Shown piece after piece: positions 39,733 through 45,658 of a DNA stretch of 64,000 bases. The stretch's first letter is position 1, and every line of letters starts with the position of its first letter. The stretch covers positions 10,629 to 74,628 of the forward strand of contig JANLTJ010000051.1 of NCBI GenBank assembly GCA_031362885.1. Direction: 5' to 3'. The translations under genes and the position numbers were made by a program. The stretch comes from Betaproteobacteria bacterium. GTDB taxonomy: Bacteria; Pseudomonadota; Gammaproteobacteria; Burkholderiales; JACQAP01. The notes beneath the pieces are model-generated. The model worked only from the letters and a program-made list of their open reading frames with translations, did no database searches and was not told where the DNA came from.

Positions 39733-39987
39733 ATGCAAGCATTCACCTTGTCCGCACACGCAGAGGTCGCGATCGTCTCGCGTTCCATCCCGATCGAATG
39801 GGTAGAGCGAGTTGTTTCAGACCCTGACAAGAAAGAGCGCGATATGGATGATCCAAATCTCACGCATGCATTGAAGCGGATCCCAGAACACGAGGAACGG
39901 GTATTGCGAGACGTCTATAATGAGTCGGCCAACCCCATCAGAATCGTGACAGCCTACTTCGACCGAACGATGCGGAACAAACTATGA
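39733..39987 (+). CDS. DUF4258-like putative toxin
   Basis: LSAHA....SRSIP.EWVE.V...PD, RVLR..Y, IVTAYFDR; ATGA coupling to the next gene. Confidence 0.7.
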   Translation: MQAFTLSAHAEVAIVSRSIPIEWVERVVSDPDKKERDMDDPNLTHALKRIPEHEERVLRDVYNESANPIRIVTAYFDRTMRNKL

Positions 39988-40205
39988 AAGTCCACTTTGA
40001 TCAGAAGTCCGACGCGTTGTATTTCCGTCTTGACGATTCGGAAATCATCGAATCAGAAGAGGTAAAGCCTGGAATTATTCTCGATTTCAACGGCCGGAAC
40101 GAAGTGGTCGGGGTGGAAATCTTGAACGTCAAGAAGCGAGTGCTGAAGCGAGTCTCAGAAAAATGGATTTCGAATTCGTATAGCTCCGAGCCTCTTGCGA
40201 TCTGA
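39984..40205 (+). CDS. DUF2283-like putative antitoxin
   Basis: MKVHFD..SDALYFRL, ESEEV.PGIILDF, VVGVEILN. Confidence 0.8.
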   Translation: MKVHFDQKSDALYFRLDDSEIIESEEVKPGIILDFNGRNEVVGVEILNVKKRVLKRVSEKWISNSYSSEPLAI

Positions 40206-40279: not shown

Positions 40280-43261
40280 TCATGGAAGCGCCGCAAGCTG
40301 GGCACGGATTTTCTCCAGAGTCGTGCTGAACCCTGACAAACGTTCTTTTTCCTGAGCCACCACCGCTGCCGGAGCGCGTGCCACGAATCCGGCGTTGGCG
40401 AGCTTGCTGCCGGCTTTGGCTATTTCATTCTCGATGCGCATGATTTCTTTCGACAGCCGCTCTCGTTCCGTGGCGAGATCGATCTCGATCTTCAGCATGA
40501 GCCGATAGTCACCGACGATTTGTAACGGAGCGGTTGAGGCATTCCTGCCGGATGCCAGTTCCGCGACGATCTCGACTCCCGATAGTTTGGCCAGCGCTTT
40601 CAGCGCAGGCGCGAATTGCGCCAATCGCGCTGCGTCTCCGGCAACCGCGAGCGGCACGCGTTGCGCGGGCGAGATATTCATTTCTCCGCGCAAAGCCCGG
40701 CAGGCATTTACCAGCGATTTGAGTTCGTTGACCCAGGTTTCGGCGCTCCCATCGATTTTCCCGGGCTGCGACACCGGGTAGGCTTGCAGCATGATCGATG
40801 CTTCGCCTCCGGGATGGCGGCCGGCCAGCGGCGCGACTTTTTGCCAGAGTTCTTCAGTGATAAACGGGATGATCGGATGCGCGAGCCGCAACGCGGCTTC
40901 GAGCACGCGCAGCAGCGTGCGCCGGGTGGCGCACTGCTGCGCCTCGGTGCCGGTCTGCATCTGAACTTTGGCGATTTCCAGATACCAGTCGCAGTATTCG
41001 TCCCAGACAAATTTGTAAATCGCTCCGGCAGCGTTGTCGAAGCGGTACTCGGCGAAGCCCTTTTCCACTTCCGCTTCGGTGCGTTGCAGGAGGCTGACGA
41101 TCCAGCGGTCGGCCTGGGATAGATCAAAGCCTCCCTCATCTTCCGGTCCCTCATCCCCTGCTCCCTCATCCCCTGCCCTTCTGCTCCGCTTCAAGTGTGC
41201 CCTTGTCCCGGAGGGTAGAGCGGTGGGAGTTCCCCTCACCCCACCCCCTCTCCCGGAGGGAGAGGGGCTCTTTCCCCCCTCTCCCTCCAGGAGAGGGGCA
41301 GGGGGTGAGGGAGATTTTGAATCGAGCGAAACCCCGCAGTCCCTGCCCTCGCAGTTCATCAGCACAAAGCGGCTGGCGTTCCACAGTTTGTTGCAGAAGT
41401 TCCGGTAGCCGTCGCAGCGGTTGAGGTCGAAATTGAGCGTGCGCGCGAAGGTCGCCAGCGAGGCGAAGGTAAAGCGCATGGCGTCGGCGCCAAACGCCGG
41501 AATGCCTTGCGGATAATTCTTGCGCAGGGCTTTCTCGATTTTCTGTTTGTGCTCGGCGCGCAGCAACCCGACGGTGGATTTTTCGATCAGAGCTTCCAGC
41601 GCGATACCGTCGATGAGATCGAGCGGATCGATGGTGTTGCCCTTCGACTTCGACATTTTCTGGCCTTCGGCATCGCGCACGATGGCATTGATGTAGACGT
41701 CGCGAAACGGCACCTTGTCCGTGAAGTGCAGGGTCATCATGATCATGCGCGCAACCCAGAAGAAAATGATGTCAAAACCGGTGACCAGCACCGATGAGGG
41801 CAGGAATTTTTCAAGGTCAGGCGTCTTGTCCGGCCAGCCCAGCGAGGTGAAAGGCACCAGCGCGGAGGAGAACCAGGTGTCGAGGACGTCTTCGTCGCGG
41901 CGCAGCGTGCCGCTATATCCTTTGGCTGAGGCGAGTTTCCGGGCCTCTTCTTCGCTGCGACCGACGTAAATAGCGCCGTCCTCGCCGTACCACGCCGGAA
42001 TCTGGTGGCCCCACCACAATTGCCGGGAAATGCACCAGTCCTGAATGTTCTCCAGCCATTGGTTGTAGGTGCTGGTCCAATGCTCCGGATGGAACTTCAC
42101 TTCGCCTCTGGCAACGCAATCCAGTCCGCGTTTCGCAAGGCCCTCCATGTTCACGAACCACTGATCGGTAAGCATGGGTTCGACGATGACCCCGGTGCGC
42201 CCGGAACGCGGCACCTTGAGTTTGTGCGGTTTCTCCGAGACAACCAGTCCCAGTTCCTGCAAGTCGGCCAGCACGCGCTGGCGTGCCTCAAATCGCTCCA
42301 GCCCGCGATAAGGCGCGGGTGCCCTGTCGGCGATTTGGGCATCCAGTGTCAGAATGCTGATCTGCGGCAAGCCGTGGCGTTGGCCGAGCGCGTAGTCGTT
42401 GAAGTCGTGTGCCGGCGTGATTTTCACGCAACCGGTGCCAAAGGCCGGATCGACGTAAGTGTCGGCGATGACCGGAATCGTGCGTGCGCATAAAGGCAGT
42501 TGCACTTGCCTGCCGACATAGGCCCGGTAGCGCTCGTCGTCAGGATGAACCGCCACCGCGACGTCGCCGAGCATGGTTTCCGGGCGTGTGGTGGCAACGA
42601 CCAGACTGCCGTTGCCGTCGGCCAGGGGATAGCGAATCTCCCAGATGCGGCCGTCCTCTTCTTCGCTGTCGACCTCCAGGTCGGAGACGGCGGTGCCCAG
42701 CACCGGGTCCCAGTTAACCAGCCGTTTGCCGCGATAGATCAGTCCTTGCTGATGCAGCCGCACGAAGACTTCGACGACCGCGCGCGACATTTTCGCGTCC
42801 ATCGTGAAATAGCCGCTGTTCTGCTCTTCCGTGTCGGCAAAGTCCCAGTTGGCGGAAGTGCCAAGGCGGCGCATCTGCCGGGTGATGGTCGACCCCGATA
42901 ATTGTTTCCATTGCCAGACGCGATCGACAAATTGCCGGCGTCCCAGATCGTGCCGGGTTTTGCCTTCGCTTTCCAGTTGGCGCTCGACCACGATCTGCGT
43001 GGCGATCCCGGCATGGTCGGTGCCAACCACCCAGTTGGTGGCGAAGCCGCGCATGCGGTGATAACGCACCAGCACATCCATGAGCGTCTGCTGGAACGCG
43101 TGGCCCATGTGCAGGGTGCCAGTGACGTTCGGCGGCGGGAGCTGGATGCAGTACGCCGGATGCTGCCCGGCATCTTCGACTTCGAAATAGCCGCGCGCTT
43201 CCCAGATCGGGTACCAGCGCTGCTCGATATCCTTGGGATCGAAGCTCTTGGCAAGTTCCAT
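40280..43261 (-). CDS. valS: Valine--tRNA ligase with an in-frame repeat insertion
   Basis: [31 protein letters not shown]-terminal coiled coil. Confidence 0.97.
41132..41311. repeat. Palindromic CCCTCACCCC-type repeats and a 15-bp tandem array inside valS
   Basis: CCCTCACCCC...GGGGTGAGGG (41233-41311) with internal CCCTCTCCC/GGGAGAGGG hairpins; three 15-mers TCCCTCATC(N6) at 41132-41176. Confidence 0.85.
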
Positions 43262-43290
43262 AGGTCCGGGATGAAAATTGGGGCGGCGAA

Positions 43291-43749
43291 TTATAGCCGA
43301 GCGTCGTCCGTGGACTGTGGCTGTTCGGCGATGCTGGCAATAACAGCGGCGCTGATCGCGTCAGGCAGTGTCTGATTGAGTTCGGCCACCAGCAGATCGA
43401 GCAGGTGTAGCTGCGTCTCGTCGCCGATCTGCTTGCGCAATCGCGCGTGCTCGGCGTCGAGAGCGGCGGCCATGCGCCGCAGGATCAGGATACTGATCCG
43501 GGTACTCGAAGGAGACAACAGTGACGGGGCGGCGGCAGGGCGCTCGAGGCCGGGGACAATATCCAGGAGGGTGGGAATGCCGTCTTCGTTTGGGCCGTTT
43601 TCCTGGTCCGCGGCGTGCGTGAGCACCGGAATTTCAGCGGCATCGGACGGCTTTGGACGATGCCGGTTCAGCAATTGTTCGATCTTGCCCAGAACTTCGT
43701 CGTGCTGTTCAGCCTCGATGTCTGCTTTGGGCGGAAGATCTTCGGCCAT
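43291..43749 (-). CDS. Hypothetical protein between holC and valS, PopZ-like architecture
   Basis: TGATG coupling to holC; short N-terminal helix, acidic/Pro-rich linker with IPVLT/IPTLL, C-terminal helices. Confidence 0.75.
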
Positions 43750-44177
43750 CAGGACGCCGATGATCCAAGGTTATGCGTGCGGATTTCGTAACCACGGTCG
43801 CGATAGAAGCGAAACCGCGCACGCGCCGCCTCACGATCTTCGTCCTCGATACCGACGATTTCCACCAGGCGCGTGAATCGGCTGAAAAATGCCGGAGGTT
43901 GCGCGCACAGATTGACCAGCACCTGATCGTGAACCAGCGGCTCGGCAACATGATCGACGATGACCGGCGTAACCGGGGCGAGCCGGTCGCTGCTGCGGCA
44001 ATGTGGTACGAACCCGGTGGCAGGCGTGCTCCAGATCAGCTTGCCCAGACGCTGCGTTTGGGCAGCATCCGGTGTCAGCAAAAACACCCGCATGCCGCGT
44101 GCCAACGCCTTGCCGGTCAGCGTGCAGGCGGTGCGCAGCTTGTTGTCCGCCTGGGTATAAAAGAGGACTTCGGTCAC
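43749..44177 (-). CDS. holC: DNA polymerase III chi subunit
   Basis: V.FY, IW....GFVPH, LVNL, FSRF.RLVEIV, ARARFRFYRDRGY; pepA-holC-valS order. Confidence 0.93.
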   Translation of the reverse strand: MTEVLFYTQADNKLRTACTLTGKALARGMRVFLLTPDAAQTQRLGKLIWSTPATGFVPHCRSSDRLAPVTPVIVDHVAEPLVHDQVLVNLCAQPPAFFSRFTRLVEIVGIEDEDREAARARFRFYRDRGYEIRTHNLGSSAS

Positions 44178-45658
44178 CAGCCTGCGCGCGTCATCAGAAA
44201 CTGCGTGAGCAAAGGCACAGGACGCCCGGTGGAACCCTTTTCACGCCCGGATTTCCAGGCGGTGCCGGCGATGTCCAGGTGTGCCCACTTGAATTTTTTG
44301 GCGAAACGCTCAAGAAAGCACGCTGCGGTAATGCTGCCTCCGGGGCGGCCGCCGATGTTGGCGACATCGGCGAAGTTGCTCTTCAGTTGATCCTGGTAGT
44401 CGTCCCAGACCGGCATCGGCCATACCCGGTCCCAGGAAGTATCGCCTGCCGCAACCAGTTCGTCCGAGAGTGCGGCATCGTTGCTGAACAGTCCCGATGC
44501 CACATGCCCCAGCGCGATGACGCAGGCGCCGGTCAAAGTTGCAATGTCGATCACCGCCGCCGGATCAAAGCGCTCCGCATACGTCATGGCATCGCACAGG
44601 ATCAGTCTTCCTTCGGCATCGGTGTTCAGAATCTCGACGGTCTGGCCTGACATGCTGGTCACGATGTCGCCCGGCCGGGTTGCATTGCCGCCGGGCATGT
44701 TTTCGACCGCAGGGATGACGCCAATCACATTGAGCGGCAGCTTCATGGATGCGACGGCACGCAAGGTGCCGAGCACACTGCCGGCGCCGGACATGTCGTA
44801 CTTCATCTCGTCCATTTCCGCGCCGGGTTTCAGCGATATGCCGCCGGTGTCGAAGGTGACGCCTTTGCCGACCAGGACCACCGGCTTTTGCTGTTTCGGT
44901 CCGCCGTAGTACTCAATCGTGATGAGTTTGGGTGGCAGGCGGCTGCCAGCGGATACCGACAGCAGGGAACCCATACCGAGCTTCAGCATGTCCTTGCGCT
45001 CAAGCACGGACACTTTGAGTTTGTGGGTCCTGCCCAGCGCGCGGGCCTGCCCGGCCAGATACTCAGGGGTGCAAATATTCGGCGGGAGATTGCCCAGATC
45101 CCGCGCCAGGTTGATCCCTTCGCCGAGCGCAATTCCGCGCGCCAGTGCGGTGTTGGCGGACTTCGATTCCCGGATCAGTCCAAGGCCAATTTGTTTCAAA
45201 TTCTTCCGCTTGCCCTCGGCCTTGCTCTTGAGTTGATCGAAGCGGTAAGTGCCTTCCAGGCAGGCTGACGCAGCCTGCATCGTCACCCATTCAGCGTCGC
45301 GCTTCGCGACTTTCGTGTCCCCGACGTAGAGCGCTGCTTGCGCGATACCGGCATCCATCAGGGCGCGAATCGCGCCGCGCACCCCATCGCGAAACGCTTT
45401 CGCCGAGGTTGCGTTCTGCTTGCCGAATCCGGCCAGGAGCACCCGTTTGCTCGAAATGCCAGTCAAGTCATAGAGCATCAGGGTTGAACCGGGATTCGCG
45501 TCGAAATCGCCATGCTTGAGAACGCCGGAAATGCCGCCTCTAGAGGCTCGATCCACTGCCAGTGCTGCCGGGGACAGTTTCGCCGCGTTGAATACCGGCA
45601 CCACAACACAATCGGCTTTCAGTTTTTCCGGCGCTGCTACTTTTATGCTAAATTCCAC
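44174..45658 (-). CDS. pepA: Leucyl aminopeptidase
   Basis: VGKGVTFDTGGISLK, MKYDM, NTDAEGRL, ATLTGA. Confidence 0.96.
   Translation of the reverse strand: MEFSIKVAAPEKLKADCVVVPVFNAAKLSPAALAVDRASRGGISGVLKHGDFDANPGSTLMLYDLTGISSKRVLLAGFGKQNATSAKAFRDGVRGAIRALMDAGIAQAALYVGDTKVAKRDAEWVTMQAASACLEGTYRFDQLKSKAEGKRKNLKQIGLGLIRESKSANTALARGIALGEGINLARDLGNLPPNICTPEYLAGQARALGRTHKLKVSVLERKDMLKLGMGSLLSVSAGSRLPPKLITIEYYGGPKQQKPVVLVGKGVTFDTGGISLKPGAEMDEMKYDMSGAGSVLGTLRAVASMKLPLNVIGVIPAVENMPGGNATRPGDIVTSMSGQTVEILNTDAEGRLILCDAMTYAERFDPAAVIDIATLTGACVIALGHVASGLFSNDAALSDELVAAGDTSWDRVWPMPVWDDYQDQLKSNFADVANIGGRPGGSITAACFLERFAKKFKWAHLDIAGTAWKSGREKGSTGRPVPLLTQFLMTRAGW

Follow-up and report, generated by a model that had tools for sequence, protein, structure and literature searches.

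We analysed a 64,000-nucleotide stretch of DNA from a Betaproteobacteria bacterium (GTDB lineage Gammaproteobacteria; Burkholderiales; GenBank assembly GCA_031362885.1, contig JANLTJ010000051.1, positions 10,629 to 74,628 of the forward strand), hereafter the window, and focused on a 152-amino-acid open reading frame (ORF P0001; 43291..43749, minus strand, ATG start in the ORF listing) that lies between holC, encoding the chi subunit of DNA polymerase III, and valS, encoding valyl-tRNA synthetase (ValRS). The encoded protein, referred to below as the window protein, belongs to a widespread, uncharacterised and unnamed family, here called the post-holC family, whose genes always lie close behind holC and ahead of valS. 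We tentatively propose, with a probability of roughly 0.4, that the window protein is a self-associating, multivalent acidic adaptor or scaffold of the type represented by PopZ, which is the textbook organiser of bacterial cell poles and serves as a condensate model.

The window protein shows the features by which we define the family, namely an ORF that begins at the holC stop codon or close to it, an IPxL(T/E)D(V/I)V motif, C-terminal helices, and profile similarity between subfamilies. A single-sequence search with the window protein returned 14 clusters and 16 representatives among 1.84 billion proteins, and a 19-sequence profile (alignment A2) found 82 clusters, all of them annotated "hypothetical protein" and none with a precomputed Pfam domain. 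At the genome level, the window protein itself matched 24 of the genomes of 41 relatives, including 21 of the 24 belonging to the same genus, and profile A2 matched 120 of 301 Burkholderiales genomes at 122 places (a tally that counts the unpublished genome G314); the term "orphan" used in the initial annotation was therefore dropped. Within the loci recovered by these searches with the protein and A2, the family match lay between holC and valS in 32 of 32 cases. Twenty further matches fell in open frames of 300–600 amino acids, 18 of them directly after holC and two being second, unrelated matches. These long forms retained the N-terminal module and the C-terminal helical domain, with 150–450 residues rich in P, A and E inserted between them; the length of the acidic P/A/E-rich linker sets the range of family members, from 83 to 600 amino acids, and both its length and its sequence vary freely.

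The 152-amino-acid ORF is a genuine protein-coding gene under purifying selection, because the ratio of nonsynonymous to synonymous substitution rates (dN/dS) against the copy in genome G008 is 0.21 (0.13 for holC, for comparison) and its motifs are kept across genomes in the alignments. Every segment quoted in the initial annotation was found in the translation, and the coupling to holC described there was confirmed: holC (43749..44177, minus strand; Pfam PF04364, E 2.4e-36) lies immediately upstream, and reading of the sequence revealed a TGATG junction (43747..43751, minus strand) in which the holC stop and the ORF start have one base in common. valS (40280..43261, minus strand; Pfam ValRS) follows 29 nucleotides (nt) downstream of the ORF stop.

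AlphaFold2 predicted helices at residues 12–29, 80–107 and 111–141 of the window protein, with residues 30–79 disordered. The N-terminal helix (residues 12–29; 43663..43716, minus strand) is amphipathic, with a hydrophobic moment of 0.47, and contains the family motif VLGK(L/I)DxLLxRHR, also found as VLGK(L/M)DxLLxRHR, in which K22, L26, L27 and H30 are invariant or nearly so; the segment [11 protein letters not shown] corresponds to residues 17–27. Two short linear motifs follow. The first, EIPVLT (residues 39–44; 43618..43635, minus strand), has P41, L43 and T44 invariant or nearly so in the N-terminal profile alignment (A3), and the second, [10 protein letters not shown] (residues 56–65; 43555..43584, minus strand), includes GIPTLL at residues 57–62 and has P59, L61 and V65 invariant in the alignments. 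The second motif is a case of the family hallmark IP(V/T)L(T/E)D(V/I)V, observed in 127 of 128 Burkholderiales members and also in the gammaproteobacterial ORFs described below; it is usually preceded by acidic residues, giving the form (D/E)(D/E)IP(V/T)LT(D/E)VV in one to three copies. The linker (residues 32–79) holds eight D/E and eight P residues. The C-terminal two-helix hairpin (residues 80–107 and 111–141; 43327..43512, minus strand) was predicted with a local confidence (pLDDT) of about 90 and holds the pattern LxxELxxxLPxA(V/I), which aligns with the "NLPxLVE" motif of PopZ; the segments LLSPSS...MAAAL and [17 protein letters not shown] correspond to residues 77–97 and 120–136. The family plan is thus an N-terminal amphipathic helix, one to three motifs, an acidic P/A/E-rich disordered linker, and two C-terminal helices.

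Structure and domain searches gave no assignment for this plan. A Foldseek comparison of the model with the PDB returned 0 of 277 matches at E ≤ 0.001, and the nearest solved folds to the hairpin were homo-oligomerising helical hairpins, none of them significant. Sequence searches of the PDB with profiles A2 and A3 yielded designed helical bundles and other noise and nothing else, and the NCBIfam search with the window protein gave a single noise match (E 0.099). Separately, the DprA winged-helix domain PF17782 appeared as a sub-threshold match in 25 of the 92 close relatives that make up the window's subfamily (alignment A5; best E 0.0021), which we judge likely to be a single chance resemblance common to their C-terminal helices.

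We also investigated the family in other Gammaproteobacteria, a class taken in the GTDB sense, with Burkholderiales included. The N-terminal profile A3 gave only three marginal matches in 300 gammaproteobacterial genomes besides the window's own genome. We inspected the holC-valS gap in 70 genomes of 70 families, drawn from 95 holC matches in 121 genomes (a set that counts the unpublished genome G546), using an automatic rule that called an ORF of at least 70 amino acids starting between −40 and +260 nt from the holC stop and carrying an IPxLxDxV-like motif. This rule called equivalent ORFs in 33 of the 70 loci, with starts from −7 to +13 nt relative to the holC stop in 28 of the 33; two loci (L108 and L138) were retained by eye, with an IPxL motif in L138 only. 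In 17 of the 70 loci the gap was shorter than 150 nt and left no room for a gene, which is the arrangement of E. coli. The gammaproteobacterial ORFs often have an N-terminal helix of the type L..ALESIK.LL, followed by IPVLEDVV.PG, an acidic linker, and C-terminal helices that end in L(D/E)..LP.(L/I)(V/I). Profile-profile comparison by hhalign of the window's subfamily (A5) with 28 of these ORFs (A6) gave a probability of 95.8% (E 8e-9, 114 columns); the Burkholderiales and other gammaproteobacterial ORFs form one family. The entries returned by a profile search with A6 were again all labelled "hypothetical protein", without any Pfam domain.

A domain of unknown function, Pfam DUF2486 (PF10667), is one branch of the post-holC family. 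Across 151 Burkholderiales genomes DUF2486 had a single strong match (E 1e-36), the ORF that immediately follows holC in genome G060; its product resembles the family in having the motif IPTLTDVLVPG, an acidic proline-rich linker and C-terminal helices, and differs from the family plan in having no N-terminal helix. DUF2486 was also the top sub-threshold Pfam match of one gammaproteobacterial member (E 0.0025), and is present in 13% of the members of the ESM Atlas cluster nearest to the window protein (score 0.94). The link of the window protein to DUF2486 is indirect, running through position and motif, that one sub-threshold member and the ESM Atlas cluster: the window protein gave no DUF2486 match at E ≤ 10 (Pfam cut-off 22 bits), nor was there one in the window's genome. 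The DUF2486 model is narrow and left both the 92-member subfamily and 14 long forms unmatched. In the portions of the literature that our searches returned, DUF2486 was named in one unrelated paper and given no functional account. Searches on PopZ combined with holC, valS, Beta- or Gammaproteobacteria or DUF2497, and on DUF2486, likewise returned no description of the family in the text they covered.

Genomic position supports the proposal of a PopZ-type protein. PF10691 (DUF2497), the Pfam model for PopZ, matched 54 of 201 genomes of the phylum, 45 of them above the cut-off, and matched Caulobacter among the control genomes. The initial annotation had stated that popZ lies upstream of valS, and this proved correct: in 21 of the 25 best alphaproteobacterial loci, valS was no more than 1.5 kb away from the PF10691 match, and the linkage is stated for Agrobacterium, Caulobacter and Magnetospirillum in the available portions of PMC5686542 and PMC6414705, the latter describing PopZ as an alphaproteobacterial protein. 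The accompanying description of the candidate hub as unrecognised and outside Alphaproteobacteria holds as far as our literature searches reached. The window gene, 29 nt ahead of valS, has the same place directly upstream of valS as popZ; the two differ in that the family gene is coupled to holC and popZ is not, holC being far from popZ in five of the five alphaproteobacterial genomes checked.

Weak PF10691 matches revealed a second group of very acidic PopZ-like proteins, in ORFs of about 115 to about 990 amino acids, which matches PopZ at an hhalign probability of 97.8%. valS was adjacent in 13 of 16 of their loci, and lay directly downstream in L083, the sole locus with coordinates and strand resolved. 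These proteins (L082–L095; from the same phylum, outside the window's class) contain long tandem repeats rich in E and are extremely acidic; their N-terminal helix is PopZ-like, and their C-terminal domain lacks the LRPML..W segment.

The architectures of the two proteins also agree. For a 170-amino-acid PopZ, AlphaFold2 predicted helices at residues 9–41, 97–113 and 130–168 around a disordered linker, and in both this model and that of the window protein an N-terminal amphipathic helix is followed by an acidic proline-rich disordered linker and C-terminal helices. Both proteins have an acidic isoelectric point (4.61 for the window protein vs a PopZ median of 4.42), a linker of very variable length is common to PopZ and the post-holC family, and both have a C-terminal L(D/E)xxLPxhV motif, located in the region aligned by hhalign. 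Several features differ. The IPxLTDVV motifs of the family and the RHR ending of its N-terminal helix have no counterpart in 20 extracted PopZ sequences; conversely, a regular-expression search for the PopZ linker motif (D/E)VLELT(D/E) was negative in all the family members covered (0 of 128 and 0 of 32). The C-terminal helices form a tight hairpin in the window model; in the PopZ model a loop of 16 residues separates a short helix from a long one.

Direct tests of sequence homology gave mixed results, of which the following weigh against a relationship with PopZ. The window protein had no DUF2497 match at E ≤ 10 (Pfam; curated cut-off 27 bits), its genome had no PF10691 match at E ≤ 0.001, and DUF2497 was found in none of the 14 long forms and in 0 of the 92 subfamily members at E ≤ 1. 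The profile-profile check proposed in the initial annotation did not bear out its expectation, as hhalign of A5 against PopZ (A7) gave a probability of only 1.3%, which is not significant; A6 against A7 gave only 11.8%, and the top local alignment fell on the C-terminal L..LP..V motif in both comparisons. In a rank test within the window's own genome, the window protein came 332nd, 645th and 27th of 17,050 ORFs with hidden Markov models (HMMs) of the PopZ C-terminus, N-terminus and full length, respectively, the top-ranked ORFs being chance matches. The gammaproteobacterial profile found no match at five popZ loci in five alphaproteobacterial genomes. With the N-terminal PopZ HMM, the N-terminal helix of Burkholderiales members scored higher forward than reversed in only 6 of 25 cases and so gave no PopZ signal. 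The C-termini of the long Burkholderiales forms matched the second PopZ-like group at 66% (P 5.5e-5), yet the probability stayed at 37–52% after reversing either alignment; because the score persists on reversal, we attribute this match to generic amphipathic helices and rejected it.

Hints of a very distant sequence relationship were confined to the gammaproteobacterial members. Domain-wise hhalign of these members gave 56% (P 1.1e-4) against the PopZ C-terminus and 36.5% (P 3.7e-4) against the PopZ N-terminal helix, with reversed controls at 4–7%. When columns were shuffled in blocks of seven, the real score was reached in 1 of 120 shuffles for the C-terminus, 4 of 120 for the N-terminal helix and 5 of 120 for the window-type C-terminus, counts that favour a link and yet mark the helical similarity as partly generic; two hhalign runs of this null errored, possibly with a slight effect on the distribution. 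The shuffled or reversed controls leave P at about 0.01–0.05. For two of the 28 gammaproteobacterial members the top Pfam match was DUF2497 (E 0.023 and 0.029; 15 bits, sub-threshold), the match at E 0.029 spanning model positions 3–71 of 75, and among 24,736 Pfam families only DUF2486 and DUF2497 were matched by two of these 28 members; noise matches of similar E-value to unrelated Pfam families are common, which lessens the value of this result. In genome G618 the post-holC ORF was the sole PF10691 match at E ≤ 10, and in G534 it ranked second, a result that is not independent, as both genomes were chosen after their Pfam matches were known. Finally, with the C-terminal PopZ HMM, the forward score exceeded the reversed score in 21 of the 32 gammaproteobacterial members (one-sided Wilcoxon p 0.013) and in 18 of the 25 from Burkholderiales (p 0.004); these p values are overstated because the members are interrelated.

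The initial annotation had read matching segment order, size and synteny as the marks of a PopZ homologue. Order, size, acidity and position stood up to examination, and the sequence homology proved weak. From these weak sequence links, together with the shared place upstream of valS and the shared architecture, we consider homology between the post-holC family and PopZ plausible, at odds somewhat short of even. For the proposed PopZ-type scaffold, the C-terminal hairpin would self-associate, the acidic linker would serve as a spacer, and the N-terminal helix and IPxLTD motifs would recruit partners; the protein may be a very distant PopZ relative that retained the ancestral place upstream of valS.

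The broadest form of this proposal, which we rate as speculative and rather unlikely as a whole, is that the post-holC family would be the missing PopZ orthologue of Beta- and Gammaproteobacteria. The hub gene upstream of valS would then be ancestral to Pseudomonadota, lost in E. coli-like lineages, where holC was left abutting valS, and re-tooled elsewhere with IPxLTD client-binding motifs; its product would be a self-assembling polar or condensate-like hub co-produced with chi, with ValRS as a fused client in several Burkholderiales families.

It is improbable, in our estimate, that the window protein is instead a lineage-specific helical and disordered protein that is unrelated to PopZ and resembles it by convergence, perhaps with a role chiefly in cis, such as that of a translated spacer carrying or modulating a promoter of valS itself. 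The non-significant PopZ profile comparisons (1.3% and 11.8%) fit such a protein, as do the reversed and shuffled controls, which account for much of the score, and the free evolution of the linker in length and sequence. A role in cis is suggested by a perfect TATAAT hexamer read in the sequence over the ORF stop codon, 29–34 nt before the valS ATG (43290..43295, minus strand), which may be the −10 box of a promoter belonging to valS itself; however, a promoter scan called no full promoter at this hexamer, its sole call being upstream of pepA. Moreover, the peptide motifs are strongly conserved across the entire class, the dN/dS ratio is low, and the confidently predicted C-terminal hairpin points to a function at the protein level. 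Convergence, for its part, would need to have given rise twice to one architecture at one place in the genome.

The PopZ-type scaffold would matter well beyond the window, given that family members occur in about 40% of the sampled Burkholderiales and about half of the other sampled gammaproteobacterial families and are almost wholly unannotated. PopZ-like architecture and position make them a testable candidate hub in lineages with no known hub.

The link to holC allows a different interpretation, in which the protein is a chi- or replisome-linked adaptor, made together with HolC and binding either chi or another protein that recognises the tail of the single-stranded DNA-binding protein (SSB), a tail that chi binds. 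In one variant, the acidic (D/E)(D/E)IPxL motifs would imitate the C-terminal tail of SSB; in the other, the protein would tether chi much as psi does (HolD, a subunit of DNA polymerase III and small partner of chi) in genomes where psi is undetectable. The one-base overlap with holC favours an adaptor of this kind, as does the tight coupling class-wide (the 28 of 33 starts noted above). The SSB of the window's genome ends in DDIEDDIPF, and many family motifs read DDIP(V/T)L. In addition, psi (PF03603) was not found at E ≤ 1 in the window's genome, which is 99.98% complete, and was present in only 6 of the 121 gammaproteobacterial genomes (three above the cut-off), chi (PF04364) being present in 95. 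The psi proteins that are detectable have an N-terminal GIPxW peptide, which resembles the GIPxL at the centre of the family motif.

These points are offset by several others. In E. coli-like genomes valS itself abuts holC as tightly (the 17 of 70 gaps below 150 nt), so that close spacing does not necessarily imply binding. Proteins that recognise the SSB tail do so through its free C-terminal carboxylate, whereas the family motif is internal, and the motifs of the window protein are only weakly acidic (AEIPVL and DGIPTL). Should the family be related to PopZ, the separation of popZ from holC in all five genomes checked also argues against a chi adaptor. The window protein shows no profile similarity to psi, and is helical and disordered, unlike psi, a globular alpha/beta protein. 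A complex prediction for HolC (alignment A4) with the window protein (A5) gave a score of 0.00 (mark 0.32), which counts neither for nor against binding. On balance we regard either variant of the chi adaptor as improbable, and the coupling raises the question of whether many bacteria without a detectable psi possess a co-translated chi partner. Two observations concern psi itself. What tethers chi to the clamp loader is not visible with the current psi model in most of the 121 genomes. At two loci, L186 and L187 in genomes G598 and G623, a protein about 230 amino acids long matched PF03603 only at model positions 2–27, the N-terminal peptide; the rest of these proteins we take, by eye, to resemble a uracil-DNA glycosylase.

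The link to valS, which is the one feature common to the post-holC family, PopZ, and the second PopZ-like group, points to a further role, as a ValRS-associated module that would tether, localise or regulate ValRS, mostly in trans and in some lineages as an N-terminal extension. Of the 122 family places, 17 lie in open frames of 1029–1297 amino acids, all running without a stop into ValS, and an 18th also runs into ValS but is interrupted by masked bases. These fusions (L168–L181, L024, L030, L032 and L052) start at the post-holC start, keep the ValS start methionine, and have a P/A-rich linker. They occur in at least three Burkholderiales families and are family-wide in three, with 5/5 matches in family f55, 4/4 in f43, and 4/5 of those listed in f51. 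On the other hand, the low-complexity P/A-rich fusion linkers look like a passive tether, and an acidic protein is unlikely as a tRNA-binding appendage. The 17 gammaproteobacterial loci with no room for the gene indicate that ValRS does not need it, and a link between PopZ and ValRS was not found in the portions of the literature searched. We accordingly hold a dedicated ValRS module to be quite unlikely. The fusions could be read as a gene-fusion signal for a ValRS link, or at least as a sign that the C-terminus would tolerate a 950-amino-acid cargo, as a scaffold might. Long and short ValRS isoforms may coexist in the fused lineages, raising the question of whether some bacteria make a long ValRS isoform that bears the post-holC module. 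In the same lineages the stretch corresponding to the TATAAT hexamer is translated, often as "..II..".

Beyond the gene pair flanking the ORF, the same-strand order at the locus is pepA, holC, the 152-amino-acid ORF and valS, with pepA (44174..45658, minus strand; Pfam PepA) upstream of holC and a divergent lptF/lptG pair (Pfam LptF/LptG) nearby. The ValRS encoded in the window contains an insertion of low complexity, about 105 residues long and rich in S, P, G, E and R (residues ~612–717; window positions 41100–41430, minus strand), situated between the catalytic Pfam domain, which ends at residue 611, and the anticodon-binding domain, which starts at residue 718. Just past the 3′ end of valS, two small overlapping ORFs that run opposite to it (39733–40205, plus strand) form a DUF4258/DUF2283 pair (Pfam E 1.6e-9 and 2.6e-17), a pairing often read as toxin-antitoxin-like.

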